From a virus (Duplodnaviria; Caudoviricetes), in the IMG/VR virus record IMGVR_UViG_3300022697_000105, positions 1 through 29,990 of that record: DNA of 29,990 nt. The stretch is one strand, 5' to 3'. Position numbers and translations under genes: made by a program. Each line of letters begins with the position of its first letter. Within the stretch, counting starts at the first letter, position 1. Shown here piece after piece: positions 1 to 29,990 of this stretch. Below the pieces are notes generated by a model. The model was given only the letters and a program-made list of their open reading frames with translations. It ran no database searches and was not told where the DNA came from.

Positions 1-3000
1 TTATCCGCTTGTAAGAATTCATCACAGTTGGTGTGATTTTTTGTGCAAGCAATTGTTGGGTTGTTGCATTCAATACAATGTCGGCATCGTGGTTTGCTGC
101 AATGTCATAGTCGTCAAGTGTGTCGAATCTTACTGTGGTTCCGTCAATTTGGTGCGCAAGGTCGCTTGTCGCAATCACCGCCCAAATGGTTCCGTTGAAT
201 GCAATTCCACTTCCTGTTCCACCCGCTGTGATTCCGTGGACCCTTATTTCATCAACGCCGCCTGTGAAGTTTGCGATGTAAGTTGAATTCGGTTCCAACA
301 CTAAGTGAATGTCACTTGCTGGTTCAACGATTGCTGGAAGCACATCAAATTGTTGAAGTGCAACCGCACCCGGTAAGTCATCGGTCAATGGCTGTGTTGG
401 CAATGTCCACAGGATGTCATTTGGGTTTGTTGATGGAAGTCCACCACCGTCATCCCGAACAAGTTTCAACTTGAAGAAACCACTTGGGCTTCCAAGTTTT
501 GACATTTGAAAAGCAACCTTGTTGATGGTTGTTTCCTTCGCCAATGTAACTTTCATTGAAAGTCTTTGCTGTGTTGTTGCGTTCAATACAATTGGTGTGG
601 TTGTTGTTGCGAATAATGATTGGAATGCATCTTTTGGTTCAGTCAGTTGATGTCGTCCACGGAATGCGCCTGTGTTGCCGACCCTTTCCATTTGAACAAC
701 TTCAAGACTGTTGCCACCATTCTTGGATGCTTCGACCACAAAGTTCGGGTCAACATCCCCTTCAATATTTTGGAAGGCAAGGATGTCAATTGTGTTGATG
801 TCCTTTTCTTCGGTGTATTCATTGAAGTCAATAAGGTTGATTGTAAGTAAGTCATTGGTTGCAAGGAACTTATAAAGTTCTTCAACAATACTGAAGGTTG
901 CCGTTGCGCTGTCAACCAAGTCATCATTTGTTAAGTTGAAAATCACTGGTGCTTGTAATTGAAATAAGGAATCATTTTGCGCATCGTCGATTCTTGTTTG
1001 AATCCCGGATGCATCACCACTTCCACCACCTTCACCACCAGCACCCACACCAAGTTGTGTGACGTTGGCTTGAACGATGTCTTCAATGTCTGTGTCACCA
1101 GCGTTTCTTTGAATGAAGAATTGACCAAGTGAAATGTTTCCACTGAATGGTGCCCTTGGTGCGGCATCGGCTGTTGCACCGTCCGCACTTCCAACCAAGA
1201 CCAACATTTGAATGTTGATTGTATTATTGGCATTCACACTTGACGGAACAATGTTCACAGACATCCAACGAAATTGCGATGCTGCAACAGTCGGTGGTGT
1301 GAAATTGATTCCAAGTGGTGTGGTCCCATCACTTTCAAAGATTGAACCCGTCTTTGGGTCAATTTCCGCACCAGAAAATTTTGGAAGTAAGTTCGACAAC
1401 TTTTGACCCAATGCTGTGTTGTCTGTTTTGACCGTTCCAATTCCTGTGATGACAAGCCTTTTCTTATTGGAAGGATGTTCACGAATCTGAAGGTCTTTGA
1501 AATATTTGTCTAAGGTCAACAACACTTTCGCCATGTCGTCATCGGCGTTCGGTATTGTTCCACCAAGGTTTGCTGGTGGTGTTGCAGCATTGACACCTGT
1601 GAAGATTGCGCCCGCACCGTGGTCTTTGTCTTGCAACCCTGTCAGTGTTCCGTGGTCACTTCCACCACCTGTTGGAATCCCTGATTCAACATCACTTCGG
1701 AAGTCAGTTACATCAACAAGTCGTGTGTTGACACTGTTGGTGAATGCCGCTTGTGTTTCAAAAATTGCACGATATAAGACTTTTGCTTCAAGAACTGGAA
1801 AGTCGCCAACCATGAATGCTGAAGAAACATTGTTTGCTTGTGCATTACTTAGTGTTGTGTCTTCCCTTTGTCCCAAGACCGCAATGACTGGTTCATTCAA
1901 GTCATTGGTTGCAATCAAGAATACAGCAACAAAATTTCCGTCGGTTGCTTCCTGAAGCCCGAACGGTCCCGATGTGTCGTTGAATTGCATCAATGGTGTT
2001 CCACCCACAAGGAATGGAAACGATGATGCTGCAACCTTGCGCCACACACCTGTGACACCATCCCTGTAAAGCACAGGAAGTTTTGCCGGAAGTGAAAGGT
2101 CTTGTTCAAAAGGATTCGCTGGAACACCCGCATCAACGATGTTCATTTCAATGTCTTCGTCGAATATTGTTCCACCATTCAATGCAAGTTGTGCATGTGC
2201 ATCCGCTGAACCGTCACCCGCCGCATTGAAGGTTGCATCAAGTCCGCTTATGTAACGAACACCAAAAGCATTGTGTAAGTAATAATGTGTGCGACCGTCC
2301 ATGACAGCGCCATGACGTTCTTCACCCAACTGTGTTATTTCTTGTTGTGCAACATTCCAGTAAACAGTCGCAATGATAACCTTGTCCAAAAGAACATCTT
2401 CGGTAAGTCCCTGTTGTGTTCCAATGACACCGTTTGCATCAAAATAAATGTAATGAACACCGTCAAGGTCTGGAATGACGATGTTTTCAGCCGCCGCCTT
2501 TCTTCGGACACGACCCCTTTGGGCAATGTCGTAAAATGTTGCGGGTGCTTTTGGTTGAATTGTGAATGTTCTTGTTCCTGTAACAAATGAAATTTCCGAA
2601 TCACTTCGGTCTTTACTTTCAAAACCTGTTTGTTCATCAACAAGTTCCGCAAGATTTTGTGGTTGCCAATCACCAACAGCAAGTCTTTGCCAAAGTGATT
2701 TCAAATAGTCTGTTCCACCATTTCTGACAACAGCAAGTGAACCGTTGACTGGTGTTACTGAACCCGCGAAGACTGGTTGTGCCGTCCACAATAATGCGGC
2801 ACCAACGCCGCTGACTTCATAGATTCCTTCGATTGCACTATTAGTGAATAGGACACGGTCACCGTTGACGACTGGTATGCCGTCGGGTGAATGATTTGTT
2901 CCGACTGGAAGTGCTGAAGAAACAATGTCGATGTAATCAGTTTTGACGACAACATCATCCCTTTGTTCAAGTCTTTTCAATCCCCTTGTGAGTGATTCCG

Positions 3001-4276
3001 CATCAATCAAAAATAAGTTAAGAATTGCACCACCAAGTGCATTCGTGTAGTCCGGGTCAGCATCCGATTCATCACTTGCACCCAAATAGTCAAGTGTGTC
3101 TTGGGTCATTCCGTCAATGCGCCCAACCGTTGGTGTTAAGGCATCACCCTTAAGTTCCAATGTTCCGTTTCTGAAAATGATGTCATTTCCTTCACGAAAC
3201 ATTATTGGTTCAGCTTCCGGCGTGTTTGGCATTCCACCATTCGCCGCCTTTGAAATTACTTTTGTCCCACCGATTTGGTCTTTGATGATGTAAAGGATGT
3301 CACCGTCTGAAATTGCTGCAATGCTTGTTGCTGTAATGTCGAAGTCAAAACTTCGGTGTGGCAATCTTACATTCAAGTCAGCCGCAAAGGTCATTGTTTC
3401 GGTTGCCAAATTCCAAGTGATATTTCCACCACCAGTCAAGAAACCAAATGTCGAATCGACGATGTTTTGAATTTCTGAAACACCAATGATTTTGTTGACC
3501 CCAATGAAATCAAATGTTGATGGGATGTTTCCATTGTCGCCTGTGATTTTTCCCAAATATACAACATTCGGGTCAAGTGTTAAGTCTGTGTTTCGCTTAA
3601 CAGTTGGACCAAGAAGAATCACTTCATAGTCTGTGGCAACCGCTGAAATATTTCCAAGTGTTTGACCAAGTGCTGTGATGGTTTCAATTTTGTTATTTGA
3701 CCCATCCCAAATCACAGTCAATTCTTCAAAGGCTTGAACCTGTGAAACCGGGTTCTTCAAATAGACAAGAACTTTTCTTCCGGCATTACTTACACCAGCT
3801 TCCGTCACCGAATCAACAGTGATGGTCAGCGTTTCATCGCCGTCATCAACAACCAAATCAGGGTCAGCCTTTTCACCAATGCCGTCTTCAAATAATGAAT
3901 ATTTGACTTTGCCTGTTCGCACATTGATTTCTGTCAATCGTGGAATGGTGACAAATCGAAGACCAACAAAATAGTCGATGCCTGTTGCATTTTCAAAAGG
4001 CACGTTGTCGGCAAACAATGGGTCAAGTGTAAGAATGTTCCCAAGTGGTCCGTCTGTCCCTGTAAGTGGTGTGAAGATGTCGAACGTGTCAATGGTGTCC
4101 GCACTAAGTGGTGGGTTGATGTCCGGGTTTGGTTCAAACAAACCTTGCAATCTGAACGTCCGAAAACTTAAATCCCGAATTTTCTTTTCAAGGAAGTCGA
4201 AGAAATTTTCCGTGATGTTCTGTTGCGACAGGAATTTCTTCAAAAATATATTGACTTTTCTATCGCCTGTTGCCAT
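1..4276 (-). CDS. Very large tail fibre / baseplate-attached structural protein, 3'-truncated by the window edge (at least 1425 aa)
   Basis: Manually translated because it is missing from the ORF track (no stop in the window). ATG at 4276 follows AAAAGGGG. It starts MATGDRKVNIFLKKFLSQQNITENFFDF and stays open to position 2 (...TPTVMNSYKRI). It contains a fibre-type motif DGIPVVNGDRVLFTN..GIYEV and Gly linkers, and lies directly after the gpI-like gene. Confidence 0.8.
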   Translation of the reverse strand, partial: MATGDRKVNIFLKKFLSQQNITENFFDFLEKKIRDLSFRTFRLQGLFEPNPDINPPLSADTIDTFDIFTPLTGTDGPLGNILTLDPLFADNVPFENATGIDYFVGLRFVTIPRLTEINVRTGKVKYSLFEDGIGEKADPDLVVDDGDETLTITVDSVTEAGVSNAGRKVLVYLKNPVSQVQAFEELTVIWDGSNNKIETITALGQTLGNISAVATDYEVILLGPTVKRNTDLTLDPNVVYLGKITGDNGNIPSTFDFIGVNKIIGVSEIQNIVDSTFGFLTGGGNITWNLATETMTFAADLNVRLPHRSFDFDITATSIAAISDGDILYIIKDQIGGTKVISKAANGGMPNTPEAEPIMFREGNDIIFRNGTLELKGDALTPTVGRIDGMTQDTLDYLGASDESDADPDYTNALGGAILNLFLIDAESLTRGLKRLEQRDDVVVKTDYIDIVSSALPVGTNHSPDGIPVVNGDRVLFTNSAIEGIYEVSGVGAALLWTAQPVFAGSVTPVNGSLAVVRNGGTDYLKSLWQRLAVGDWQPQNLAELVDEQTGFESKDRSDSEISFVTGTRTFTIQPKAPATFYDIAQRGRVRRKAAAENIVIPDLDGVHYIYFDANGVIGTQQGLTEDVLLDKVIIATVYWNVAQQEITQLGEERHGAVMDGRTHYYLHNAFGVRYISGLDATFNAAGDGSADAHAQLALNGGTIFDEDIEMNIVDAGVPANPFEQDLSLPAKLPVLYRDGVTGVWRKVAASSFPFLVGGTPLMQFNDTSGPFGLQEATDGNFVAVFLIATNDLNEPVIAVLGQREDTTLSNAQANNVSSAFMVGDFPVLEAKVLYRAIFETQAAFTNSVNTRLVDVTDFRSDVESGIPTGGGSDHGTLTGLQDKDHGAGAIFTGVNAATPPANLGGTIPNADDDMAKVLLTLDKYFKDLQIREHPSNKKRLVITGIGTVKTDNTALGQKLSNLLPKFSGAEIDPKTGSIFESDGTTPLGINFTPPTVAASQFRWMSVNIVPSSVNANNTINIQMLVLVGSADGATADAAPRAPFSGNISLGQFFIQRNAGDTDIEDIVQANVTQLGVGAGGEGGGSGDASGIQTRIDDAQNDSLFQLQAPVIFNLTNDDLVDSATATFSIVEELYKFLATNDLLTINLIDFNEYTEEKDINTIDILAFQNIEGDVDPNFVVEASKNGGNSLEVVQMERVGNTGAFRGRHQLTEPKDAFQSLFATTTTPIVLNATTQQRLSMKVTLAKETTINKVAFQMSKLGSPSGFFKLKLVRDDGGGLPSTNPNDILWTLPTQPLTDDLPGAVALQQFDVLPAIVEPASDIHLVLEPNSTYIANFTGGVDEIRVHGITAGGTGSGIAFNGTIWAVIATSDLAHQIDGTTVRFDTLDDYDIAANHDADIVLNATTQQLLAQKITPTVMNSYKRI

Positions 4277-4334
4277 TCGCTTCCCCTTTTACATTATGTA
4301 TAACATCGTATAACATGTCTTTCAATCCTTCAAT

Positions 4335-6272
4335 CTATAAATCAAATCCGGGGTCAATTCTTTCCACATCGACCGGAAGCTGCATCATTTCAACTTCGCC
4401 GATTTGGATTCCTGTCGCACCGGACCTAAAGCCAAATTTTCCCTTTTCAAAACTACTGTCAAACACTTGGTGTTGTCGGTTTGAATCGACAAATGTTTGA
4501 ATTTCTGTAATGCCTGACAATTCATCATAACTTGTTGTGACGCTGAAGAAATACGTTGCGCCTGTGATGATGTCTTCCGTCACGAATGCACCAATCTGTG
4601 AACTTACACCAGCCAATGTTTTGTGAACCGAAGTCCGCAACAGCACCGTGTCAATCCTGAATTCATAAAAATTATTCGCATCCTGATAGTTGAACACAAC
4701 CGAATAGATTGTTGGTGTCACAGTTCCAATGTCATTGATGGACGCCGCAAGTAATATGTTCTTGAAGTCCGTGTCACCCAACACTGAAGTGACGAACCAC
4801 GCATTCGGGTCAAGTTCCATTTGTTGTGCGCTGTTCACCCGACCGTCACCAACGAATGGTCCGTCAATAACCCTGTCAAACTGCCCAATCCCGTCAAGAA
4901 AGTCGTCAAAGAACCGAACGAAAATCACATTCAGCCTTTCCGAAGTCGGTCGCATAAGATTCAAAATCCGAAGAATCAATGTTTTATTTAAGTCACCTTC
5001 GTCAACAATCCGAATGTCTGATTGGAATTCGTCAAGAAGTTCCGGTTGGAATTCGATGAATCCAACAAGTGGTTCAGGGAAGTTTGCGGTTGTCGCCGGG
5101 TTGTAAACAGCATAGTCAAGAACATCACCGGGGTCCAATGGGTTCCCTTCAATGTTGTTGAATTGCCTGTTGGACCACCTGAAGTTGTCCATGTCCACTG
5201 GTGCCACATCCAAGCCCACACCTGAACCACCAAGAAATAATTTTCCTGAATTTGTTAAGTCCCCAACGACGGCTGAAATGTCCTGAAACGCATCACTTTC
5301 AGCCAAGTCCCCTTTGACAAATATTCTTGCAATGTCGTTCACCCTGTCAACTGAAACAGCAATGTGGTGAAGACCACCATCATCAAAGTCAACACTTGCC
5401 GGACTGTGGGTTCTTATGAAGTTGTTCACACCATCATTCAGTGTGTAACGAACTTCATTTGTTGTGGTGTTCAATTCGACTTTCCAACCCTTACCACCAA
5501 GGTCCATTTTTTGAAATAATGTTTTCCATGTGAATGTGTTTGTTGTCCGAACAAATGCTTCAACTGTGAAGCTGTCTGACAAGTCATAAGCGCCTGTGTT
5601 TGGTGCCGAAATTACATTGTTCACAAATCGCGCATAGTATTCCGAACTTGCCGGAAACCCCGAATTCGGGGTCAGAAAGAAGAACACGTCTGAAACAGCA
5701 CCGTGAACAGTTCCGTTGTTGACCACAATGCTTCGGTCCAATGCACCGTTTTCAAATCCAAACAATGCAACCACGTTTGCAATTGGAATTGACTTTTCAA
5801 TTCCGGGTCCAGAAATCAAGAATGGGTCATCACCTAATTGGCTTTCACCAAACTGTGTTTCACCAACAATCCAACGGAAATCAAAGTAATTGAAAACCCT
5901 TGCGGACTTACCTGTGAACAGTCTTACAATATTGATGTAACCGGGTTCAGTTCCCTTTTGTTTCCATAGTGCAACAGCAAGTGAAATCAATTTCCTTAAA
6001 TCATTTTCACCAAGGTCATTTGTTATGTTGTTCAATTCTTTTGTGAACCCAACATGGTCTTTCAAGAACTGAAGCAAGTCAGCCCGTGTAAGTGCCGGGT
6101 TCAAAATTGTCTTAATAAGTTCAATGCGGTCTTGGTTATCTTCAAATATGAATTGCGGACCCGTCAAGAATCGTTCGACAAAGTTCCCGCCTTGCTTCCT
6201 GTCAAGTTCCCGGATGGGCTTGTGCAAGAACAAGAACATGTCATGTGCAAAATTTGGGTCAATCTTTGCCAT
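4335..6272 (-). CDS. Baseplate wedge protein, P2 gpI-like N-terminus with LamG/concanavalin-like domain(s)
   Basis: N-terminal ADLLQFLKDHVG...LRKLISLAVALWKQKGT motif typical of gpI-like tail proteins. Central FTVEAFVR...LHHIAVSVDR...RIFVKG...LFLGG...MDNFRWS is a LamG-like pattern. Follows the gpJ-like gene. Confidence 0.75.
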   Translation of the reverse strand: MAKIDPNFAHDMFLFLHKPIRELDRKQGGNFVERFLTGPQFIFEDNQDRIELIKTILNPALTRADLLQFLKDHVGFTKELNNITNDLGENDLRKLISLAVALWKQKGTEPGYINIVRLFTGKSARVFNYFDFRWIVGETQFGESQLGDDPFLISGPGIEKSIPIANVVALFGFENGALDRSIVVNNGTVHGAVSDVFFFLTPNSGFPASSEYYARFVNNVISAPNTGAYDLSDSFTVEAFVRTTNTFTWKTLFQKMDLGGKGWKVELNTTTNEVRYTLNDGVNNFIRTHSPASVDFDDGGLHHIAVSVDRVNDIARIFVKGDLAESDAFQDISAVVGDLTNSGKLFLGGSGVGLDVAPVDMDNFRWSNRQFNNIEGNPLDPGDVLDYAVYNPATTANFPEPLVGFIEFQPELLDEFQSDIRIVDEGDLNKTLILRILNLMRPTSERLNVIFVRFFDDFLDGIGQFDRVIDGPFVGDGRVNSAQQMELDPNAWFVTSVLGDTDFKNILLAASINDIGTVTPTIYSVVFNYQDANNFYEFRIDTVLLRTSVHKTLAGVSSQIGAFVTEDIITGATYFFSVTTSYDELSGITEIQTFVDSNRQHQVFDSSFEKGKFGFRSGATGIQIGEVEMMQLPVDVERIDPGFDL

Positions 6273-6466
6273 TACTGGTTTTCCTTATCAAGTGCTTCCG
6301 CACAAGTGTAACAATACAATTCCAAATCATCATCTTCATCAACACATCCCGGCGCAAAATAGGCAATTGGTCTTTCACATTCACAACAATGAATCTTTCC
6401 CCATGTGGAAAGTGACCCATCACCGTTCAAGCCGTTTTCCATTTCCTGTTTTGCGTCCATGCGCAT
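6272..6466 (-). CDS. Small acidic putative Zn-binding protein (CxxC...CxxC)
   Basis: 64 aa with CCEC and CYTC. Fills the gap between gpJ and gpI, with a GGGGG RBS-like run and a TAATG overlap into gpI. Confidence 0.6.
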   Translation of the reverse strand: MRMDAKQEMENGLNGDGSLSTWGKIHCCECERPIAYFAPGCVDEDDDLELYCYTCAEALDKENQ

Positions 6467-6471
6467 CCCCC

Positions 6472-8937
6472 TTAAACCACAGACACCGCAATTGTTCCAG
6501 CCAATGGAAGTTGTCGCGTTGTCATCGGTATTTCGTCACCGATTGCTTGTGGTGAAGTTACCGTTGCTTTCTTAATATTCACCGGGTCAACTTCAAAGAT
6601 GGTTGCAACAATCACTGACAATGGAATCGCTTGACCGAAATCCCATCGCTTTGTCACACCGTCGCTGAATGTTGCGTCCGGGTTCAACAATGCTGTAATT
6701 GCATTCTTGATTTGTTCTTCGTTCCCACCTGTGACTGTTGCCACAATGTCGATGCTGTTCGGGTCATAGTTGACCACAGTCGCTTCGTGGTTTGCCAATC
6801 CAACAGGTTCAATGTTGTCAATCTTTGAACCGTTGAAGAATTTTTCAATTTCAATTCTTTGTGCTTCAGATAACAATGCACCTGATTGTCCCACCACAAC
6901 AACTTCGATTGTCTTCACACCAAATGTTTCTTCAATTGCAAGTGCCCGTGAAACTGGTGAAGACCCTGTTGTTGGTGATTCAAATTGTGCGGATAAGAAT
7001 TCATAGTCAGCAACAGTGATTGCACGTCCCCGTGTCCGCAAGGTTGCTGGTCCTTCAATTTTCAATCGTGCAAGGTCTTGTTCGGTTGAACCTTCCTTGA
7101 CTTCAAATCCTTGGGCTTGTCTTGGGTTGAACAGTCGATTCACAAAACTGATTCCAGATTTGTTCACTGTGATTGTGCTGGAACCAACGTTTCCATCTTG
7201 GTCAGCACCGACACGATATATTGCACGAATGTTGTCCACGCCCGGTGTTGGAATCTTACCCTGAACACCATCACCGAATCTTACTTTTGCATTGTCGTTT
7301 GCATCAATGTCAATTGTGTAATCTTTTGAAGCACTGTTTGAAGACAAGAAGTTTTCTTTCAAGTTCCAAGGCTGGAATCCTGAACCTTCATCGGCTTCAA
7401 TTGTCAGTGTTCCTTCAATCAATGGTCTTTGCACCAAAAGGAACTGTTGATTTTGCGCACCGTTTGAACTTCCAAGTGGGTCATCAACAACTGTCTGTCC
7501 CTGAACAACAGGCACAAGCAAGAATTGTTTTCCGGTGTCGATTCTTATTCGGTCAACATTTGGATTGATTGGTGCGCCCGTTACCGAAACAACACGAAGT
7601 CGAAGCCACATTGCTTCAAGACCATTCACAATCAACGGCAACCAGTCTTGTCCTTGATTTTGTGGAAGTGTGTATTCAATTTTTCCATCTTCGGTAAGTT
7701 CAGTTGTTGCATCTTCGGTGTCACTTACTTCGTTCCACTGTGTTCCAACATTGTAGTCATTTTCATTCACTGAAACAGTCGCTTGTCCAAGAAGTCCTGT
7801 TGTCGTGATGATGTTCTTTGTTCCATTCCACGTTGACACCACAAATTCTTGTGCGGCTGTTGAAGTAAGAATCACACGAACAACTGTGTTTCGTCGGTCG
7901 CTTGTTCCAAGAAGTGTTGTCAAATCAAGTTCAAGGTTTGAACCCAAGTTGGTTACTTCGTCCGGTTTTGCGTCTTCAAAGGTTGCGTCGTAAAATTCAA
8001 TTGCGAATTTGATTCCCGCACCAACCGTATTGAACACCCATTCAAGTGTGTCCCACATGATTTGTGCATGACCAAAATATATAAGGTCGCCCGCTTTCGG
8101 CGTGTCGTCAAATAGGTCAAAGAATACACCGTCCGTCGATGCCAACCCCGTTTTGTTTGTGCTGAAACCACCTGACAAAGTTGTAAAGTTATCGGTTGCA
8201 CCATCGCTTTCAACGACCGTGATGGTTTCAACTTCTTGAATAATTGGGATAAGCGAAATGGTGTCCACACCGTCAAAGATTGCGGCAACCCTTCCAAGGA
8301 TTGCATCGTCGGCTGAAAGATTGATTGCGTCTGTGATGTTTTGTGCCGTGACCGCAATGGAACCCCCCGCCACCCACTCAATTCCAAATCTGAATGCGAC
8401 ACCTTCAATTGCGATTTCATCCCCGGCATCAAATACATTGTTGATGACTTTGATTTTTCCACTTGTGAATGTGAAGACCGCTGTTGGTTCGTCTGTTGGG
8501 TCAATTGTAAGTGCTTCGTTATTTTCAAAAATTATTTGTGGGCTTTCATCCGTTTCAACTGTGGCGAATTGACTGTTGATTGGAACGATTGATGTGATGA
8601 TGTCGAACACTTTTGAAAATTCAAGAACAACATCAACGCTTGAAGGTTTTGCTTGTGACAATGTCACGTCAATAAGTGCAAGGTGCCCACGAACAGATTC
8701 CAAAAGTCTTGCTGTTGGAAGCAAGGTTTCGTTTGCAACAACATCCAAAAGAACATTATTCAAATGTGCTGTCAGCGCATAAGCACGTTCAAGCTGTGTG
8801 TAAGGTTCTTCATCACCTTCATCGGTTATTTCAGGAACGTTTGCACGTCTGAATTGGGTCAACGAACGGATGATGTCGGGATAGTAGAACCCCGAAAAGT
8901 CAAAGTCTGGAATTTCAATAAGTCTTGCTTCAGCCAT
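6472..8937 (-). CDS. Baseplate wedge protein, gpJ/gp6-like (long Afp11/Afp12-type)
   Basis: Motifs include IPDFDF..YPDII..L, ETLLPTARLLESV, LGSSNGAQNQQF, VRFGDGVQGKIP, YRVG...GNVG and RAITVADYE. These are hallmarks of long baseplate-J proteins. Confidence 0.9.
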   Translation of the reverse strand: MAEARLIEIPDFDFSGFYYPDIIRSLTQFRRANVPEITDEGDEEPYTQLERAYALTAHLNNVLLDVVANETLLPTARLLESVRGHLALIDVTLSQAKPSSVDVVLEFSKVFDIITSIVPINSQFATVETDESPQIIFENNEALTIDPTDEPTAVFTFTSGKIKVINNVFDAGDEIAIEGVAFRFGIEWVAGGSIAVTAQNITDAINLSADDAILGRVAAIFDGVDTISLIPIIQEVETITVVESDGATDNFTTLSGGFSTNKTGLASTDGVFFDLFDDTPKAGDLIYFGHAQIMWDTLEWVFNTVGAGIKFAIEFYDATFEDAKPDEVTNLGSNLELDLTTLLGTSDRRNTVVRVILTSTAAQEFVVSTWNGTKNIITTTGLLGQATVSVNENDYNVGTQWNEVSDTEDATTELTEDGKIEYTLPQNQGQDWLPLIVNGLEAMWLRLRVVSVTGAPINPNVDRIRIDTGKQFLLVPVVQGQTVVDDPLGSSNGAQNQQFLLVQRPLIEGTLTIEADEGSGFQPWNLKENFLSSNSASKDYTIDIDANDNAKVRFGDGVQGKIPTPGVDNIRAIYRVGADQDGNVGSSTITVNKSGISFVNRLFNPRQAQGFEVKEGSTEQDLARLKIEGPATLRTRGRAITVADYEFLSAQFESPTTGSSPVSRALAIEETFGVKTIEVVVVGQSGALLSEAQRIEIEKFFNGSKIDNIEPVGLANHEATVVNYDPNSIDIVATVTGGNEEQIKNAITALLNPDATFSDGVTKRWDFGQAIPLSVIVATIFEVDPVNIKKATVTSPQAIGDEIPMTTRQLPLAGTIAVSVV

Positions 8938-10539: not shown

Positions 10540-11463
10540 TTACACATCTAAGAACACCGTTGTCGTTGGGACAATCGGTGCGCCTGTAATTAAATCAATC
10601 ACACCAAGATGTGATGCTTTGCTTGTTGCTTCACTTGCGGACCCATTCAATTGAATCTGTGACGCCATGATGATTGCATTCCCACCAGCCGTCGCTTCAA
10701 TATTTCCGCTTGCCATTATTTTTGCGTTTGCACAGTTGATTTCACAATCACCAGTAATGTTGAAAGTTTTCTTTCCACCAACTGTTTCTGTTCCATCCCC
10801 TGTTATACTTATGATTTGGTCCTTGACGATTGTTTCAAACCAATTTCCGTCTTTGTCCCAATGAAGTAAGTTTCCAATTGCATGGAATAACTTCATGAAG
10901 ACTTCCCCGCCTTTGTCCTTATTCATGAACTGAAGGAAGTGTCCGTCTGAATGTCCCAACTTGACAGCGACTTCATTCAATGTTTGGTCACCACCCTTGA
11001 TGAAATTTGTCATTTGAAGGATGTGACCAAGTGTGTGTTTCAATGCGACTTCATGAAAATTTTCAAGGTCATCAAACATAAGTATGTGACCGCTGTTTGT
11101 TTTCCACCCCATTCGGAACGGATAGTTTTTCCTGAATTCATCCGCGATGTCAGCGGCTTTGGAATATATCATGCAACGCCAACGCGGTTCAGGATTTTCA
11201 ATGTCGTCACAATCGAATGGTGTGTTCGGGTCATGCGCTTGAATCAACACTTCGATTTCGTCACCGACCTTTGGGACAAAAAAGAATCCCGCGCCATTGG
11301 GTGCTGAAGCAAACGGAAAACAAGGTTCCGCTGGAATGGGGAATTCACCATTGAATAATGTTGGTGCTTCAAAATAAACAGACCCACGCAATAACAAAGT
11401 TTGTTGGTCGTCTGACTCAACATTCCTTGTGACAATTGCATTGTGGACTTGTATTTTTCCCAC
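10540..11463 (-). CDS. Baseplate central spike (gpV/gp5/VgrG C-terminal-like)
   Basis: OB-fold motif GAGFFFVPKVGDEIEV, then KTNSGHILMFDD, repeated H-x-x-G-H beta-helix units and an ITGD/ASGN-rich C-terminus. GTG start overlaps the upstream TAG. Confidence 0.88.
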   Translation of the reverse strand: MGKIQVHNAIVTRNVESDDQQTLLLRGSVYFEAPTLFNGEFPIPAEPCFPFASAPNGAGFFFVPKVGDEIEVLIQAHDPNTPFDCDDIENPEPRWRCMIYSKAADIADEFRKNYPFRMGWKTNSGHILMFDDLENFHEVALKHTLGHILQMTNFIKGGDQTLNEVAVKLGHSDGHFLQFMNKDKGGEVFMKLFHAIGNLLHWDKDGNWFETIVKDQIISITGDGTETVGGKKTFNITGDCEINCANAKIMASGNIEATAGGNAIIMASQIQLNGSASEATSKASHLGVIDLITGAPIVPTTTVFLDV

Positions 11464-12851
11464 TATATATTCCCCTTAAATTTTTCAACCAATATGTCAT
11501 TCGCTGTCAAGTTCAGTGTTGGTGGCGATTGAACAATTGTGTCATCAATCAACTTGCGGCAAGTGAATTCACCCTTGTAACCTTCGGACTTTGAAACCCT
11601 ATGAATTACTTGTGTGAAGAAATACTTCCCTGTGAACTGTTCAGTGATTCCATTCAATATGTGTGTTTGTCTTGATTGAATTGCTTCATTTCCTTTAAGT
11701 GTTCCCTTTCCTGTTATGAAATTTTCTTTCTGTCTTTTGATGAATTCTTCAATTGCTTTTCTTGCGGCGAATTCATTCTTGAATCTTTTGTGTGATGGAA
11801 ACTTGAATGACCTTCCGAATGCTTTGAAGCCAACTTGCACACCATCGTCTGAAGGTGTTTGCTTGCCGCCTTGTGGTCCCGGATTCCCACCTGTGAATCG
11901 TCTGTCCCTTTCCGCTGCAATCTTCTTGTTTTCTTCAAGTGTCAACTTGTTGATGAAGTTCACTTTCGTTCCACGGGTTGTTTTGTCTTTGATGATGAAT
12001 ACTTCAAAATCTGTTGCTTGGTCAAATGCATCCAATGTTGGTTCAAACGACAACAACTTGTTTTGAAAATCGACCAAGTCCCCTTCACCATAAGAAAATG
12101 AAAACACTTCTTTTCGTGCTTTGCTGTTTGGTGGCTGGAAGAATAACGCGAATTTCTTTCTGTCTGTGTCGAACCGACTGAACACTTCAAACCCATTTAT
12201 TTCAGCGACTTTCTTCAAGAACTGATAGTCACTTGTTCCTTTCTTTTGGACACGGTCATGAACACCAGCCGTTCGTTTGATTCCCGCAAAACTTCTTGGG
12301 TCCGCTGTTCTTATGTCAAAGCCGTTTCTTTCACCAATTATTGAAGCAATCTGTGAATCACGGAATGACTTGTAAGAAACCCCACCTTTTGGAATCCGTC
12401 TTGCGGCTTTGAAAAGCAAGTCATGTCCTTCAATGCTGAAGGATGGGAAGTCTGTTTCTGGAAATGTTGGTGTCTTCTTGGTTATGATTCCGGCACCGAC
12501 AGTGCGAAGTGTTCCACCATAGCCGAATTGGAATTCAAGGATGCTTCCTTCAGAAAACAACTTTGAATCAAGTAATGACATGAATTGTCCACCACCAGCA
12601 TTGTCAGCCTGACCTTGGAAGGTGATGCTGAACCTTGACATTTGGTCGGAATTGTCTTCAAACATTATTTCATCAATATATTTTGTTATTTCATTTGTGA
12701 ATTCGACTGGCTGTGCGCCTTCGCCACCGCGATGAATAATCTTATAGGTTGGCGCAAACGGGTCACGGGTCAGCGGAACTGAACCAATCGCCCGTGGGGA
12801 AACGGCTTTCTTACTTAAACCCCCAAAATTGACCAACGATAACAAACCCAT
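11463..12851 (-). CDS. Baseplate hub, gpD/gp27-like (phage late control D)
   Basis: FGYGG...G.IT...PTFP...P...IEGHD, DSQIAS.I, Q...SDYQFLKKVAEING, and GKYFFTQVIH motifs. Confidence 0.88.
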   Translation of the reverse strand: MGLLSLVNFGGLSKKAVSPRAIGSVPLTRDPFAPTYKIIHRGGEGAQPVEFTNEITKYIDEIMFEDNSDQMSRFSITFQGQADNAGGGQFMSLLDSKLFSEGSILEFQFGYGGTLRTVGAGIITKKTPTFPETDFPSFSIEGHDLLFKAARRIPKGGVSYKSFRDSQIASIIGERNGFDIRTADPRSFAGIKRTAGVHDRVQKKGTSDYQFLKKVAEINGFEVFSRFDTDRKKFALFFQPPNSKARKEVFSFSYGEGDLVDFQNKLLSFEPTLDAFDQATDFEVFIIKDKTTRGTKVNFINKLTLEENKKIAAERDRRFTGGNPGPQGGKQTPSDDGVQVGFKAFGRSFKFPSHKRFKNEFAARKAIEEFIKRQKENFITGKGTLKGNEAIQSRQTHILNGITEQFTGKYFFTQVIHRVSKSEGYKGEFTCRKLIDDTIVQSPPTLNLTANDILVEKFKGNI

Positions 12852-17457: not shown

Positions 17458-17486
17458 AAGCCCACAGACTATGAATCTGTGGACTT
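17458..17486 (-). terminator. Stem-loop downstream of the tail tube gene (weak terminator or mRNA-stabilising hairpin)
   Basis: Minus strand AAGTCCACAGA-ttcatag-TCTGTGGGCTT forms an 11-bp stem with one G-U pair. The U-tract is poor. Confidence 0.55.
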
Positions 17487-17508
17487 CCCCTGTTTTATTT
17501 CACCCCGC

Positions 17509-17955: not shown

Positions 17956-18005
17956 AGTGATTTCCCCTTTGTCATATAAGTGTTATTTTTCGCCATTGTT
18001 TTGCC

Positions 18006-20651
18006 TTACCCTTCCGTCACGCCAAGTTGACTGACTGTGATGATGAATCTTTCAACTGTGTCAACAAGGTTCAACGTAATTGAAGCATTCAAGTTCCCCG
18101 CATTTGTTTCGGAAGCCGGGTTGTTTTCATCATCAATTTTGATGATTGCGGCATCCGTTACACTGTCCCCAACAATCGCACCTTTTGCGAATTCAGGAAT
18201 GAAGAACACAAGGAATGTTGATTTCAATTGTTCCCTTGTTTCCCTGTTGTTCAAGGCGAAAATAATGAAGTCAAAGTTTTCAAGGAATATGTTTTCGTAA
18301 TGTGACAAAGTTTCACGCTTATGTTTGAAACGTGAACTTGGGTCAAGGTGAAGTGTTCGGTCACCCCATAACACGAAGTTTCCACTGATTTGTTTGATGA
18401 CACCAATTCCCTGTGGGTTCAAGAATTCTTCATCCAATTGTTTGTCTTCAAGTCCCGCTGGAAGTTTGATGACATTGGAAAGAATTGCGTCCACACCAGC
18501 GGCGGCTTTGTGATAACCGTCGAAGTCCCGTGCAAACCTTGATTCAACACCCATGATGGAACCTGTCAGTGTGACAAGTTTCAAACCTTCACCAAGTGGG
18601 TTGGGAACGAAACCATAAGATGGGAATGAAACGACCGCAAAGTCATTTCTTCCAATCGTTTCGTTGATATATTCTTCAGCCGCTTGTTCGGAAACGATGT
18701 TCGCTGGAATTTCATAACGATACATCCAGTTTTGGCTTGCACCGAATGCAACCCCCGCTTTCTGAACAGCCGCCGAATTCACACCCGGTGAAGCCAACTT
18801 AATAAGTCCAAGGTTCTTTCCGCGCATTGCTTTCAATGGTGAAGTTCCTGTGTCGTATGCGACCAAGTAATTGATGTCCGCGATGCTTGCAACACCGTCT
18901 GAACCACCGCCAAGTTGTTGTTCATAACTTGAATCGAATTGGTCACCAGCAACCGCATTCACTGTCATGTCCGAACCTGTTTTTACAGTTATGCTTTCGG
19001 AATCGTTTGACACGATTTCAAAACCTTCGCGGAATAATGATGATTTTGGTCTAAGTGTTCCACCAACCAAGGCATCGTTTGCCAACGGTCGAACTTCAAT
19101 AAGAAGTGATTCACCAACTTGCCATTCTTTCGTGCTGTCGAATGTTGTGTCCACTAAGGTGAAGCCCATTGCGAAAGCGTTTGGCGGTGCAAGTGCAACC
19201 CCTGAAGTTACAACCACACCCGTGATGAATGTCATTTTGGCTGAAGCATAAGTCCAAGTTTGGTCAACACCACCCGAAAGCGTCGCACCAGCGAAAGTTG
19301 GTGGGGTTCCACCAGCACTTGTGGTTGTCAGCGCATTTCCAAGAACACCCGGTGTTGCAGCGAAAAGGTCCATGTTTGCACCAGTCGCTTCGGCAAACAC
19401 TAATAAGTAAAGTGCGTCACCAAGTGTGTCCCGTTTGGAATTAATTTTTGCAACCAAGTTGTCCCGTGAATCGGCGGCTGTTGCACCAATCAACACTTCA
19501 TCCGCAAGTGTCGGAACGGTTTTGAAGGTAAGTGTTTCACCAGCAATGACAACTGTGTCACCGTCGGTCGGCTGTCCGGGAAATGTCAACAGGCTTGTTG
19601 CCCGTGCGCCCGTTGCCGTCACTGTCAAGGTGGCGTCATCGTCAATTATTGAAGCACCCGGAACTTGTGTGGAAACTTTCGCTTTCGCACCAGTCGGTGA
19701 ATTGGGAACTTCTTGTGAAATTTTTAGTGTAAGAACTGTGGATGTCAATGAAAGTGATTCACCCGCCAAGTTTGCTGGTCGAATATCGGCGGTAACTGTA
19801 ACCCCAACCTGAAGGTCTTCAACACGAATGTTGAAATCAACATCACTGTCGTCATTGACAACTTTGATGTAATAGTTTCCAGCCGCCGGGTCTGGTGAAA
19901 GATTGTCGAATGTTTTGACCAGTGTTGAAATGTTTCCTTCAATGAAGAAAACTTCCATTTTGAATTCTTCGGAAGGGTTGTCTGTTCCCGGTCCCACTTT
20001 GACGGCAATTGCTTCACCATCGTTTGCCAAGTTGACTGAAATAAGTTTGTCCAAACTTCCACCAAGTTCAGCAACAAGGTCAACATCGCTTGGGAATGTA
20101 AGAAGTCCAAGTGCTGTGTTTGAAACAACAACAAAGGATTTTCCGGGTATTGCATTGAAGCTGACCAATGCGCCAACTAATTCATCAACCTTTAAGTCGG
20201 CGGGCACAACATCCAACTGAAGTGTCGTTGTAAGAACGGTGTCATATTCATCAATAAGAATTTGTTTTTTGCCACCCCAACGACCCGGATTTCCACCTTC
20301 AATTTTCATTGCAAGTGCGCGTGTTGGGCTTTTGCGATTTGTGAGTTCAACGAAAGAAGTCTTTTCATCACCATCGGTAAGACGGTTCAACCAAAGTTGT
20401 CCGGCACCGTTTCCAAGTCTTAGTCTGTCAATTGCGGAATCAGGAAGTAATGATTCGGGGATGATTCCACCAGCACGGAAGCCATAGTCAGTGACATTGT
20501 TCACGAAGAACATCTTCCCAACTGGTCCCTTTTGCATGATTCCGGTGAATGCTGTCGTTCCCAATGCGCCCGGTGTGATTGTTTGTTGTCCACTCTTTTC
20601 GATAACAACGACGCCCGCGCCGCGTGTTGGTCCAAATCTTCGTTGTGCCAT
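18006..20651 (-). CDS. Contractile tail sheath protein with large insertion domains (881 aa)
   Basis: GVVVIEK...ITPG..GTTAFTGI..KGP, NPGRWG, GYHKAAAG, LNPQGI..I, VLWGDRTL and IDDENNP...GNL motifs. Confidence 0.95.
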   Translation of the reverse strand: MAQRRFGPTRGAGVVVIEKSGQQTITPGALGTTAFTGIMQKGPVGKMFFVNNVTDYGFRAGGIIPESLLPDSAIDRLRLGNGAGQLWLNRLTDGDEKTSFVELTNRKSPTRALAMKIEGGNPGRWGGKKQILIDEYDTVLTTTLQLDVVPADLKVDELVGALVSFNAIPGKSFVVVSNTALGLLTFPSDVDLVAELGGSLDKLISVNLANDGEAIAVKVGPGTDNPSEEFKMEVFFIEGNISTLVKTFDNLSPDPAAGNYYIKVVNDDSDVDFNIRVEDLQVGVTVTADIRPANLAGESLSLTSTVLTLKISQEVPNSPTGAKAKVSTQVPGASIIDDDATLTVTATGARATSLLTFPGQPTDGDTVVIAGETLTFKTVPTLADEVLIGATAADSRDNLVAKINSKRDTLGDALYLLVFAEATGANMDLFAATPGVLGNALTTTSAGGTPPTFAGATLSGGVDQTWTYASAKMTFITGVVVTSGVALAPPNAFAMGFTLVDTTFDSTKEWQVGESLLIEVRPLANDALVGGTLRPKSSLFREGFEIVSNDSESITVKTGSDMTVNAVAGDQFDSSYEQQLGGGSDGVASIADINYLVAYDTGTSPLKAMRGKNLGLIKLASPGVNSAAVQKAGVAFGASQNWMYRYEIPANIVSEQAAEEYINETIGRNDFAVVSFPSYGFVPNPLGEGLKLVTLTGSIMGVESRFARDFDGYHKAAAGVDAILSNVIKLPAGLEDKQLDEEFLNPQGIGVIKQISGNFVLWGDRTLHLDPSSRFKHKRETLSHYENIFLENFDFIIFALNNRETREQLKSTFLVFFIPEFAKGAIVGDSVTDAAIIKIDDENNPASETNAGNLNASITLNLVDTVERFIITVSQLGVTEG

Positions 20652-23174: not shown

Positions 23175-24167
23175 TCAGTAACTTACCCCCTGACTTGTCC
23201 TATTCAACACAACTGGTGTTTCTTCAATGGACCCGTCGATTCTTATTGGTGCTTGATATTTTGCAAGGATTCGGTCAACTTCCGAATTCCCGGACAGCGA
23301 ACCCCTTGCTGTTGAATCTTTCAATTCAAAAAATTCTTGTTCATGTAAGTCAATTTTCAATCGCTTCAACGGTCCCGTGCTGGAAGATGTTGCCTGTGCT
23401 GTTGGACTATTTATTTGGATGATTGAAAGAAGTTCGGTTGCACGCTTAATAAGTGAAGGTGTGCTTCCGTTTTCTTCCAAGAATCCGAAGTCACCATCAA
23501 TTTTTGTCAATGTTTCCTTTACGAAAACACGATTTGTCAATGCACCTGAAAAGATGTTGTCCCTTCCACTTCCAACATTCAATTTGATTCTTGGATTCCG
23601 TCTGTCATCCTGTGGTCTTGACCGTCCCTTGAAAGCAACGAAGTCATTGTCTTCACCTTCAACCAGCGCGTTCGATGTGCTGTTGATAACAAGTTCCCGG
23701 ATTTCAATTATTGGGACAGGCAACCACATTGTTGGTGTGTTGTTTCCTTCAAGTCTGACAATCGCCGCACGCAAGTTGAAGAACTGTCCTGTGAATTCAT
23801 CAATGAAGTCCATTGATTCTTGGATGATTGCATTTCCCCGATGCTTTGGAATTGTGTCCGAATGAAGGTTGTTTGCTGGTCCATTCACAATCAAGTTTGC
23901 GGCACCAGTCAATTCAATTCTTACTGTCGTTGGTGTTGGAAATTCAATGATGCAAGAACCAAATCCAAGCTGTTCAATGACATCACCAACCACCGGGTCA
24001 GGGTCACCAGCGGTTACTTTGACAAAATCATATATGTCACCACCAGCATCGACCACCTTGTTTGAAAGTGTTATTTTTATTTTTGAAACCAATGGTGAAC
24101 CACCTGTTGCAAGTGCGCAAAGAAGTTCGCCATAAGTTAAGTATGGTCCTGTGTTGTCCACTGTCAT
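23175..24167 (-). CDS. Probable head-tail adaptor/connector protein with insertions
   Basis: YLTYGEL start, IIQESMDFIDEFTGQFF, G.FGF.....TP.LIKRAT and EVDRILAKY motifs, typical of gp6/gp15-like adaptors. Confidence 0.7.
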   Translation of the reverse strand: MTVDNTGPYLTYGELLCALATGGSPLVSKIKITLSNKVVDAGGDIYDFVKVTAGDPDPVVGDVIEQLGFGSCIIEFPTPTTVRIELTGAANLIVNGPANNLHSDTIPKHRGNAIIQESMDFIDEFTGQFFNLRAAIVRLEGNNTPTMWLPVPIIEIRELVINSTSNALVEGEDNDFVAFKGRSRPQDDRRNPRIKLNVGSGRDNIFSGALTNRVFVKETLTKIDGDFGFLEENGSTPSLIKRATELLSIIQINSPTAQATSSSTGPLKRLKIDLHEQEFFELKDSTARGSLSGNSEVDRILAKYQAPIRIDGSIEETPVVLNRTSQGVSY

Positions 24168-24727
24168 ACCCCCCTATTTTGTGTAAGTTCCGCACCATCA
24201 TAAGTCGAAAGCCATTCGTCAAAACCTTTTGGTCCGACTGACTCAAGGTCAATTCCTGTGTCAATACCCTTTACATTTTCAATTGCCGCGCCACCGAGTT
24301 CGTTGCAAAACCATGTGTAATCACCATCGGCAAAAGGATTTTTCCATTTCTTGCCAATGGTTTTCCCGGCATAGACCCAAACGATTCCAAGTGCGCCCTT
24401 CATTCCATAGCTGACACCCGCATTTGACATTGCAAACGAAATTAATTTTTTATATTGTGCGCGTGTTATTTTTATTTCGTATTCCTTAACTATATGGGTG
24501 AACTGTTCAAAGACTTTCTTCTTTGATGAAAATTGAACCTTGGTCCCGGATGCTTCATACACCACACCAACTTTTGCACCGCTTGAATACCATCTCAAAT
24601 AAACATGTGAATACGGTGTTTGTTCAAGCAATCTGATAGCCCACGAAAAGATATAACCAATAACAGGAATCCTGTTCTTTGGTTTGCTGAAACCTATGAA
24701 AATAGAAATCATTTTTCCTTCGTCCAT
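24164..24727 (-). CDS. Permuted papain-like (NlpC/P60, YiiX/YebB-type) amidase/peptidase
   Basis: Catalytic His precedes Cys: FSWAIRLLEQTPYSHV...YEA...AGVSYG...WFCNEL...GP. Confidence 0.8.
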   Translation of the reverse strand: MDEGKMISIFIGFSKPKNRIPVIGYIFSWAIRLLEQTPYSHVYLRWYSSGAKVGVVYEASGTKVQFSSKKKVFEQFTHIVKEYEIKITRAQYKKLISFAMSNAGVSYGMKGALGIVWVYAGKTIGKKWKNPFADGDYTWFCNELGGAAIENVKGIDTGIDLESVGPKGFDEWLSTYDGAELTQNRGV

Positions 24728-25264: not shown

Positions 25265-25265
25265 T

Positions 25266-27005
25266 TTACAACAACCTCACAGCTTTTATTTTTGCCCAAG
25301 AAATTCCTTCATTATTTTGTTCTATTGTATAGACATTCACAGCTTCCCTTCCGTTGAAAATAAACCGAACAATGTCGTTCGCGCTTAAAGACAAAAGAAA
25401 TGGTGGAAGTATAAGTGAATTAGATTCGGAATTGTTATTTCGTAAAAATGTCCGCACTGTTGTTAGATTTTGGCGAACATTATTGACAGTGACATACGCT
25501 TCACAACCCGAATTGTTCGCATTAGCGTCGGCATCTAAGTTGAATGAAACTTCAACTTCACAGTTCACGTCCACACGAAATTGTTCAACTGTAACCTTGG
25601 TGAATATCCCGTTGGGTCTTGAATTTTGGTCATCGGCAAAATCAAGAATTAAATTGCCACCAATTCCAGTCGTGTCTTGTTGAATGCTTGTGCTGTACTG
25701 AAGCCATGCATGGACAAATTCATCTAATTTTGCCTTGTCTGTCGATGTCATGAAACCATTTATTGTTGGTGTAACCGCCGCATGAAGTGCCGCACCCGCT
25801 TGATTTCCGTGTGCATGTGTATGGTTTGCATTCGCATAAGTATTTGTGTCTGTTCCGGCATTCCCTGTTGCCGCAATTGCTGGTGGTGTCACACCTGAAG
25901 CGGCATCTTGTGTTGCACCCGCCTCAATACCACCAAGTTTGGTTTGTTCAGCATCCGTGAATGCATTGGTGTTTGCATTGGCTTCATATTGTGTTTTTAT
26001 TTCAGCGTCGGTTTGATTGACTTCAGCAAGTGCTTCAATACCAGCAAGTTTGGATTTTTCGGAATCTAAGAATGCGTTTGTGTCGGCATTATTTTCATAC
26101 TGTGTTTTTATTTGTGCATCGGTCAGTATTGTACTTTCGCCCAACTGAAGAACATACTTGGCGTCGTCTGTGTCCCAAACATATTTTTCAACATCCTGAC
26201 CGACACCGCCGTCAACGTTACCGTATGACCCAACTGGTGGTGCTGGAAATGCTGTTTGCAATGCCACAAGTGAAACAAATTCACCCAAAAATTTTGATGT
26301 TTCAAGTGCTGCAAGTTTTGATTTTTCAGCATCCGTGAAACCATTTGTGTTGATATTATTTTCATACGCTGTTTTTATTTCGGCGTCTGTCTGGTCGGCT
26401 GTTGCACCGTTTTCAATTGTATTAAGTTTTGTTTTGTCAACGGCTGACTGAAGTCCACCCGTTGCTGGTGTTGCGTTTGCAATTGCATCCGCACCCCCTT
26501 CGACATGCCGTGAAGCATGACTGTCAGCATCCGCTTGCGCTTGGTTGACATCTATTCTTAGTTGGCTGACATCTTCACCATCAACTGTTCCCACATTTGT
26601 GATGTTATTCCCACCCATGTCGGAATCACCGGACATTGCGCGTGTTCCGTCTTCCCTGAAATATTGTGGGTGGTCATCAAGTAATAATGATGCTGGTGAA
26701 AGTTGATTGTGCGCGGTTATACCACCGGACGCTGTGACATTGAATTGAAATGTCCATACAAGTGTCGCTGTTTTCTTATGATAGTCACCCGTCAACTTAT
26801 CAATGTAAGTGTCATTCACGCGACCAAGTGCGGGTGAAGGTGCGCCGTCACCAAACAATAATTGCTGACCGAATTCAGAAACAGCACGATATTCCAAAGC
26901 ATTGGTTGAATTTTTTAGTGGGACCGTTTCTGAACCAGCACCATCAAAACCTTTTGGAACATGAAGTTCACTGTCTGGTAAGTCCTTATGCACGCCGTTT
27001 GCCAT
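25266..27005 (-). CDS. Repeat-rich fibre protein (head/collar fibre-like) with beta-sandwich C-terminal domain
   Basis: GDGAPSPALGRVNDTYID, MSGDSDMGGNNITNV, DK.KL motifs and three TDA(E/Q)IKTxYExN repeats. The C-terminus (LLSLSANDIVRF) is C1q/BclA-like. Confidence 0.75.
   Translation of the reverse strand: MANGVHKDLPDSELHVPKGFDGAGSETVPLKNSTNALEYRAVSEFGQQLLFGDGAPSPALGRVNDTYIDKLTGDYHKKTATLVWTFQFNVTASGGITAHNQLSPASLLLDDHPQYFREDGTRAMSGDSDMGGNNITNVGTVDGEDVSQLRIDVNQAQADADSHASRHVEGGADAIANATPATGGLQSAVDKTKLNTIENGATADQTDAEIKTAYENNINTNGFTDAEKSKLAALETSKFLGEFVSLVALQTAFPAPPVGSYGNVDGGVGQDVEKYVWDTDDAKYVLQLGESTILTDAQIKTQYENNADTNAFLDSEKSKLAGIEALAEVNQTDAEIKTQYEANANTNAFTDAEQTKLGGIEAGATQDAASGVTPPAIAATGNAGTDTNTYANANHTHAHGNQAGAALHAAVTPTINGFMTSTDKAKLDEFVHAWLQYSTSIQQDTTGIGGNLILDFADDQNSRPNGIFTKVTVEQFRVDVNCEVEVSFNLDADANANNSGCEAYVTVNNVRQNLTTVRTFLRNNNSESNSLILPPFLLSLSANDIVRFIFNGREAVNVYTIEQNNEGISWAKIKAVRLL
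25910..26400 (-). repeat. Three copies of an approximately 36-aa coding repeat in the fibre gene
   Basis: TDAEIKTAYENNINTNGFTDAEKSKLAALE / TDAQIKTQYENNADTNAFLDSEKSKLAGIE / TDAEIKTQYEANANTNAFTDAEQTKLGGIE. Confidence 0.9.
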
Positions 27006-28697: not shown

Positions 28698-28733
28698 AGG
28701 ATGTCACCTCTCTGTTCGTTACGGTTCACGGTC

Positions 28734-29035: not shown

Positions 29036-29990
29036 TTAAGCCAAACCAACGTTGATGCCAAGAACAACGGCATCGGTTTCTTCAATTTCCACAGCGACCC
29101 TTGCTGTCAAAGCAAACTCGGAAACACTTGCGAAAATGTTTCGGTCACGTTCCATGCGAATGTCACGTCCGATTCCAAGAATCAGGTTGCGAAATTCAGT
29201 CAAGAACAACTGTGATTCCGACTGGTAAGTGATTTTGATGTCACTTGGGTCAGGAATTGCGCCACCAAGCAAAGTGATTGTTCCAGCGGCTTCATCAAGG
29301 TCATAGTCAGCGCCATTCACGAAAGGTGTTCTTGGCACCCGTGGTGTGCTGTCAATGTCTTGTAAAGTCACAAGTTCAGACCCCGCAACGATGTTCTTAT
29401 GCTTCAAGGCAAACGGTGAACCCGCGATTGTCACAGTTAAGTGTTCAGTCACAAGTGGTGTTTGTGGAAGCAAAGCCAATGGCACAAGTTCGATTCCGAA
29501 AGGACGCAAGTTCATTTCTGAAGTCGCGGCTTGGTCACCCAATCCTGTGGCGCGTGCCGCAAGGTTATTTCTGAACAACTGTTCAGTGGTGTCGGAAGCA
29601 AAGAACTTAAGATTTCTCTTATTTCTTTTGAACTTGGAAGGCATTTCAACAATCATGTCGCTGAAGATTTGGTGCTGAACATTCTTACCGTCGTTGTCAA
29701 CAATGTGGCTTTCACCAGCACGTTTCAACCAGCCGTCTTGCAGCTTTAAGTAAGTGTCAACAATTACTTCAGTTGGTGAACCACCATCAACAAGGTCGCT
29801 TTCAAATCTTAACAAGCCAAGTTTGTCACCTTGGATGTAAAGTTCTTCAAGGTCATTCCCAAGTTGGGTTGCCATGATTCGCATGATAGTTGATTCAACA
29901 TCATCACCTTCCAAGTTTTCAGAAACAAATTCGTCCGAGATTTCCCAAGGAACCATTATTTCTTCAGGTTGTAAGGTTACTTTGCTGAAG
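29036..29990 (-). CDS. Major capsid protein (HK97 fold, XkdG/YqbE-like), 5'-truncated by the window edge
   Basis: The frame is open to the edge (FSKVTLQPEEIMVPW). Motifs include ENLEG, NDLEELYIQGD, DGWLK, MPSKF, RATGLGD, FGIELVP and LT..RNLILGIGRDIRME. Confidence 0.9.
   Translation of the reverse strand, partial: FSKVTLQPEEIMVPWEISDEFVSENLEGDDVESTIMRIMATQLGNDLEELYIQGDKLGLLRFESDLVDGGSPTEVIVDTYLKLQDGWLKRAGESHIVDNDGKNVQHQIFSDMIVEMPSKFKRNKRNLKFFASDTTEQLFRNNLAARATGLGDQAATSEMNLRPFGIELVPLALLPQTPLVTEHLTVTIAGSPFALKHKNIVAGSELVTLQDIDSTPRVPRTPFVNGADYDLDEAAGTITLLGGAIPDPSDIKITYQSESQLFLTEFRNLILGIGRDIRMERDRNIFASVSEFALTARVAVEIEETDAVVLGINVGLA

Follow-up and report, generated by a model that had tools for sequence, protein, structure and literature searches.

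Near-total loss of the trinucleotide GAG/CTC from a contractile-tailed phage and its probable origin in avoidance of shared restriction half-sites

What could remove a word of three bases from nearly 30 kb of phage DNA, in every reading frame and on both strands? The question is raised by the virus record IMGVR_UViG_3300022697_000105 (G000 among our genomes), whose 29,990 bases are the entire record and are called the window here; they carry the head-tail module of an uncultured myovirus, a contractile-tailed phage, with all genes on the minus strand. We found that GAG and its complement CTC are almost absent from the window, and we consider it probable that GAG was lost because it is the shared core of many host restriction-modification targets, chiefly as the three-base half-site of Type I systems.

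Extent of the loss in the window

An exact count gives 24 GAG/CTC sites, compared to 539 expected from a maximal-order Markov model and 809 from base composition; about 96% of the Markov expectation is gone (observed/expected ratio, 0.04). An initial annotation, made by eye from the sequence alone, had reported near-total elimination with about 20 sites left of an expected several hundred, mostly as GAGT/ACTC, and it described the window well: all 11 of its example coordinates are true sites, and 13 of the 24 survivors are GAGT/ACTC. It had also pointed to the first 2989 bases as free of the word, which is true (the first site is at 2990), but this stretch is not special, since the gap from 2993 to 8376 is longer. 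GAG/CTC is the lowest of the 32 trinucleotide pairs, the next being CTA/TAG at 0.58. In the 27 window genes, 20 sites remain versus 372 expected from 100 synonymous-codon shuffles (z -22), so the depletion stands under codon-preserving as well as Markov comparison. This under-representation beyond both expectations, on both strands, is a feature of restriction-site avoidance.

The in-frame codons follow the same pattern, with 549 GAA and 6 GAG for glutamate and 350 CTT and 5 CTC for leucine, while both codons are in use for lysine, glutamine, and phenylalanine. Out of frame, however, there are 8 GAG versus 221 expected and 1 CTC versus 140 expected in the same shuffles. Codon preference is therefore ruled out as the cause, since out-of-frame sites are equally depleted. 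The enriched words include AAG/CTT (1.69, the most enriched trinucleotide) and GAA/TTC (1.35), and CAG (0.96) and the dinucleotide TC/GA (1.02) are close to expectation. The loss extends to gene starts. With start positions taken as approximate, an upstream GAG is present for 2 of 26 open reading frames (ORFs) in the window and 3 of 84 in the depleted relative G003, compared to 60 of 101 in prophage loci, whereas runs of four G precede 9 of the 26 ORFs in the window and 3 of the 101 in prophage loci. One likely ribosome-binding site accounts for two of the four survivors outside genes, and most other window genes have G-runs in place of GAG.

The initial annotation had read the loss of GAG in isolation and overlooked that many further words are missing. 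Among tetramers, GATC is found 0 times versus 72 expected, GGCC 0 versus 38, GTAC 2 versus 27, and GCAG 19 versus 130; CCWGG is found 0 times versus 26, and 16 hexamers and 3 heptamers are at or near zero. The word profile of the window is that of heavy restriction-site avoidance, for which missing words of this kind are typical. Several observations stand beside it. The GCAG survivors, 17 of 19 after T and 18 before C, are a four-base echo of the GAG pattern, and GCAG is also low in G003 (0.14). The dinucleotide TA is at 0.32 of expectation in the window compared to 0.47-0.50 in prophage-clade loci. In G003, CGA/TCG is a second depleted trinucleotide (0.50, with T at 0.81 of expectation 8 to 11 bases on), and several interrupted palindromes are absent. 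The provirus G004 (L025-L028) lacks at least 15 palindromic hexamers and has normal GAG; therefore, within the clade, Type II-like avoidance can occur apart from GAG loss.

Surviving sites in the window and its relatives

Mapping GAG/CTC ratios onto relatives of the window phage, we found a graded series. It runs through G003 (0.13), L062 (0.19), L038 (0.22), G002 (0.29), L006 (0.31), L054 (0.47), G001 (0.70), L066 (0.80), G010 (0.88), and G005 (0.90) to the provirus G004 (0.98) and prophage loci (0.95-1.0), with some of the contigs being as short as about 2 kb. In G003 and G002 the depletion is spread evenly over the contig, and in the tree the depleted members are scattered, all outside the prophage clade. 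Other DNA of three prophage-bearing genome bins has GAG/CTC at 0.99-1.21 of expectation, so depletion is stronger in the free phage than in prophage relatives or in DNA of the putative hosts, as restriction avoidance would have it. The same values do not support a lineage-wide mutational bias, which the initial annotation had offered as the reading to adopt if the host chromosome were equally depleted; for the Bdellovibrionales bins, a host-wide bias is ruled out. Nor is the loss a general trait of lytic phages, for stretches of 19-21 kb from five controls gave 1.00 (T7), 0.82 (phiKMV), 0.85 (phi1422), 0.98 (phi1402), and 0.93 (T1). It recurs in the GenBank records of Pseudomonas phage 73 (PA73, 0.03), Burkholderia phage KL1 (0.04), and Rhodobacter phage RcTitan (0.01). 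Thus, because bins, prophages, and controls are near expectation, the trait is neither host-wide nor general, and it is present in two unrelated phage groups.

Survival depends on neighboring bases. In window genes, GAG before G or C is found 3 times versus 157 expected, and GAG before T 11 times versus 107. When sites are classed by their flanks and by the presence of T downstream, survival falls from 0.75 to 0.07 in G002, from 0.31 to 0.05 in G003, and from 0.16 to 0 in the window, and the order of contexts in G002 is the order that a shared half-site predicts. The equal loss in every context that a single three-base system would leave is not what we see in the window, G002, or G003, although all contexts are depleted in the window.

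A base profile around surviving GAGs shows T to be scarce at +8 to +11, counting the first G as 0. T-free sites at these offsets number 15 of 24 in the window versus 31% under the null (p 1.2e-3), 126 of 243 in G003 versus 0.30 (p 1e-12), 244 of 539 in G002 versus 0.28 (p 3e-18), and 103 of 308 in G010 versus 0.22 (p 5e-6); they are 25 of 28 in PA73 and 25 of 29 in KL1. No significant gap is found in G001 (285 of 1148), G004 (736 of 2233), or six prophage-clade loci (1253 of 4047). After removal of sites resembling ribosome-binding sites (4 of 24 in the window, 14 of 243 in G003, and 28 of 540 in G002) and normalization for codon phase, the observed/expected ratio of T at +8 to +11 comes to 0.47 for the window, 0.62 for G003, 0.77 for G002, and 0.86 for G010, compared to 0.97-1.02 for G001, G004, G005, and three host bins. 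In the window, G003, G002, and G010, the gap behind GAG is the deepest of all 64 trinucleotides; in G003 and G002 the dip is limited to about +8 to +12, and upstream bases in the window, taken as a control, show no dip (7 of 20). Among 7168 gapped tests in G002, the only two significant ones pair GAG with TG six bases on (7 versus 32.6) and with GT five bases on (6 versus 28.5). Eight small relatives, pooled from depleted and undepleted contigs alike, show no gap (0.97). Coupling between the half-site and a partner T at the spacing of Type I sites is thus clear in G003, G002, G010, PA73, and KL1, and it is significant and broader in the window.

Other trinucleotides have gaps of their own. TAG, itself low in the window, has one there (0.70, z -4.2). 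In PA73, KL1, and RcTitan (L068, L069, and L070), T gaps are very deep behind CAG (0.26-0.41) and CAC (0.36-0.45), and shallower ones follow CCA, GGA, and CAT (z up to -23); together these gaps are the clearest sign here of mass avoidance of Type I sites.

In bipartite Type I sites, the second methylated A lies on the opposite strand and is read as T on this strand. Table S4 of Blow et al. (2016; PMC4752239) has 28 rows with a spacer-adjacent GAG, two of them being both strands of one motif; 27 are typed I and 1 is typed IIG. By our hand tally of these rows, the partner T lies at +8 in 4, +9 in 10, +10 in 7, +11 in 6, and +12 in 1, that is, at +8 to +11 in 27 of 28, and in two rows this T is not marked methylated. 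Counting half-site places for 10 trimers in that table, GAG is second (29), after GCA (31) and before CAG (25), CCA (23), AAG (21), GAC (19), CAC (13), GAA (11), TAC (8), and TAG (3). Contiguous GAG motifs that fix the next base number 24 among the 60 listed of 68 GAG places, and by eye 19 of them fix G or C and 1 fixes T.

The phage, its genes, and its likely hosts

The window products include capsid, sheath, tape measure, baseplate, and fiber-like proteins, and no replication or modification gene is found in these 29,990 bases. The features are as follows.

1..29990, both strands: contig depleted of GAG/CTC throughout (24 sites, ratio 0.04), with many other short words also lost
2993..8376, both strands: longest GAG/CTC-free stretch, 5.4 kb, from the site list; others are 1-2989 and 16547-20342
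2..4279, minus: large structural protein with no family match, running off the left end; 1 GAG/CTC site in 4278 bases
4335..6272, minus: LamG/concanavalin-domain protein, likely tail or baseplate (Pfam PF13385, E 4.5e-11); 0 GAG/CTC sites
6472..8937, minus: baseplate wedge subunit (phrog_219, E 2e-13)
10540..11463, minus: baseplate hub-like protein (phrog_430, E 3e-7)
11463..12851, minus: tail protein (phrog_52, E 3e-8)
13731..16271, minus: tape measure protein (phrog_1533, E 2.5e-83; PF10145)
18006..20651, minus: tail sheath of the contractile tail (phrog_23, E 7.5e-20); 54-58% identity to G001-G005
24164..24727, minus: head-completion-block gene (phrog_1128 match)
25266..27005, minus: tail-fiber-like repeat protein (phrog_24456, E 1.5e-26)
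28698..28717, minus: region upstream of the gene at 28299-28697, likely ribosome-binding site, with two of the four non-coding survivors (28708 and 28710)
29036..29989, minus: C-terminal part of the major capsid protein, running off the right end (phrog_1623, E 1.5e-57); query for relatives

No close cultured relative was found, capsid matches being below 60% identity and the sheath having no match. Uncultured relatives reach 69-81% capsid identity, with one at 88% over a part, and the longest of their records are 99-109 kb; by that measure the window lacks about 70 kb of the genome of this phage, and a metagenome search gave no longer contig of the same phage. Five matching loci occur in species genomes, four of them on 71-281 kb contigs of Bdellovibrionales or Pseudobdellovibrionaceae bins and the fifth on a 2.1-kb contig in a Hyphomicrobiales bin. 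The host of the window phage is only likely Bdellovibrionota, because no species-genome locus falls on the branch of the window itself (5 rows, support 100/99) and the prophage relatives sit on a different branch. A search for prophages closer to the window among 401 genomes in the phylum of the prophage-bearing genome G006 returned one match, G006 itself. Of 121 genomes in the G006 order, 20 carry the Type I specificity domain PF01420, with up to 11 matches in one and none in G006, and our literature search found no Bdellovibrio methylome paper.

Some features of these relatives stand apart from GAG loss. In the G006 prophage, the match to the tape measure protein is broken across two frames (G006:C4:39471-42100), and G007 has two related prophages (C1 and C13). 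Near the terminase, G003 and G002 have a gene of the permuted papain-like type (Peptidase_C92). Intein domains occur in the primase-helicase and phosphoesterase of G003 (L008:1294-4248 and L008:13550-15679) and in a RecA-like gene of G002 (L014:10815-13052).

Shared half-sites and the rival explanations

If GAG was lost as a shared half-site, hosts with varied Type I specificity subunits would pair it with many partner halves 4-8 bases away, and Type IIG and III enzymes may contribute uninterrupted GAG words flanked by G/C. A phage that is unprotected and probably lytic, moving through many such strains, would be selected at each of them, and site-by-site avoidance could then merge into loss of the trinucleotide, leaving GAG mainly before T and without a partner T downstream. 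The relatives would represent stages of one process that is nearing saturation in the window. The initial annotation had proposed selection against a short, non-palindromic target, with stacked restriction systems among its candidates. Selection against such a target is supported by the normal GAG content of host-bin DNA; stacked restriction is the best-fitting candidate, by way of Type I half-sites and Type IIG/III cores rather than one four-base enzyme.

The trait works like restriction-site avoidance, yet it differs from the published picture. As in the survey by Rusinov et al. (2018; PMC6286503), targets are removed, more so than in temperate relatives, and palindromic Type II-like words are at zero in the window. 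That survey reported, however, that phages do not avoid Type I or IIG sites, specificities of these kinds changing too fast, and that Type III sites are rarely avoided, whereas the window signal points to Type I half-sites and takes in the whole trinucleotide. Murciavirus/Autographiviridae phages likewise evade a Type I system whose motif they lack (PMC12455610), but what that account describes is one full motif missing from the first-injected (leading) region only, whereas the window lacks a shared half-site across late structural genes, and G003 and G002 along the whole contig. PA73, KL1, and RcTitan resemble the window in their GAG/CTC loss and in the absence of CCWGG, and PA73 and KL1 also in the T gap behind GAG; they differ in being 43-44 kb siphoviruses of Proteobacteria, which are not among the 40 of 178 capsid matches listed, and in their deep CAG and CAC gaps, which the window does not have (CAG 0.91). 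The main texts of PMC6286503, PMC7320823, and PMC12455610 do not mention GAG, and our search found no paper dealing with GAG/CTC loss in phages or with the avoidance of half-sites (subscription papers lay outside it).

Several points weigh against the half-site explanation. The offsets +8 to +11 were chosen from a base profile that included these same genomes. The window gap rests on 24 sites and is broad, with 11 of 20 also T-free at +14 to +17 (p 0.03), and a gapped-word search in the 30-kb window, where few GAG are left, gave nothing significant. The gap is not significant in RcTitan (6 of 10 T-free) or in L006 despite its depletion, and mild gaps occur without GAG loss in G009 (0.83) and T7 (0.92). 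CAG, GCA, and CCA are comparably common half-sites, yet CAG is retained in the window, and the half-site explanation gives no reason why GAG would go first. Finally, even the safest contexts, A/T-flanked and T-free, are 4- to 6-fold short in the window (8 versus 35 or 9 versus 56), and this class is at 0.02-0.06 in PA73, KL1, and RcTitan (2 versus 49 in PA73 and 3 versus 49 in RcTitan), about 20- to 50-fold down.

This residual deficit leaves room for a reader of the bare trinucleotide. A host defense of a new type might read GAG/CTC itself on top of ordinary avoidance, with Type I systems acting alongside and producing the T gap, a reading we regard as possible but doubtful. It draws on the depletion of all eight context classes in the window (best 0.16) as in the three siphoviruses, on GAG being the lowest trinucleotide in two unrelated phage groups with different hosts, on its scarcity even upstream of genes, and on the retention of CAG. 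In its broadest form, only tentatively put, such a defense would be widespread among bacteria, and the myovirus clade and the PA73/KL1/RcTitan lineage would each have rewritten codons and ribosome-binding sites against it while dodging Type I half-sites. However, a three-base reader predicts equal loss everywhere, whereas survival varies about tenfold in G002 and A/T contexts in G010 reach or exceed expectation; depletion is graded among relatives from 0.04 to about 1, the five control phages stay at 0.82-1.00, and we identified no such enzyme.

The other candidates fare worse. A phage-encoded GAG-specific nuclease or modifier, attacking host DNA from a genome purged of the word, would require GAG-normal host DNA, as the bins show, and could lie in the 70 kb outside the window, many genes of the relatives having no family match. 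We consider it unlikely: depletion is graded among relatives, 243 sites remain in G003 and 540 in G002, and no gap at Type I spacing is predicted. Moreover, no restriction nuclease or base-hypermodification pathway appears in the scanned ORFs of these two relatives (Pfam, 70 of 101 in G003 and 77 of 121 in G002; PADLOC, 30), many ORFs being unannotated; the Pfam-scanned ORFs include replication, repair, and ligase genes and a C5 methyltransferase in each and, in G003, a DUF1599 protein, an HD protein, and a GIY-YIG protein. Erosion of CTC by context-specific mutation or repair bias, without selection, is more improbable still. Its one-step products CTT/AAG and TTC/GAA are the most enriched of their kind and TA is low, but under selection the same two products would serve as synonymous escapes, a mutational context of adjacent bases should be indifferent to a T 8-11 bases off, and prophage relatives, host-bin DNA, and the TC/GA dinucleotide are normal. 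Least credible is avoidance of GAG as a protospacer-adjacent motif (PAM) of CRISPR systems or as part of the target of DarT ADP-ribosylation. Both read short non-palindromic words, and both were candidates in the initial annotation. They are disfavored because the sister motifs AAG/CTT, with AAG the main Type I-E PAM, and GAA/TTC are enriched rather than depleted and because neither predicts the T gap; GAGA/TCTC, with 7 of 24 survivors, is not singled out.

If the half-site explanation holds, dropping a half-site common to many specificities would be a way around the fast-changing specificity of Type I and IIG systems. The T gap at +8 to +11 is a simple test for any phage genome and could reveal the Type I repertoire of a host group without a methylome. 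The presence of the trait in the cultured phages PA73, KL1, and RcTitan makes both half-site avoidance and a three-base reader testable at the bench, and the residual deficit, if real, would point to a defense with an unusually short target.

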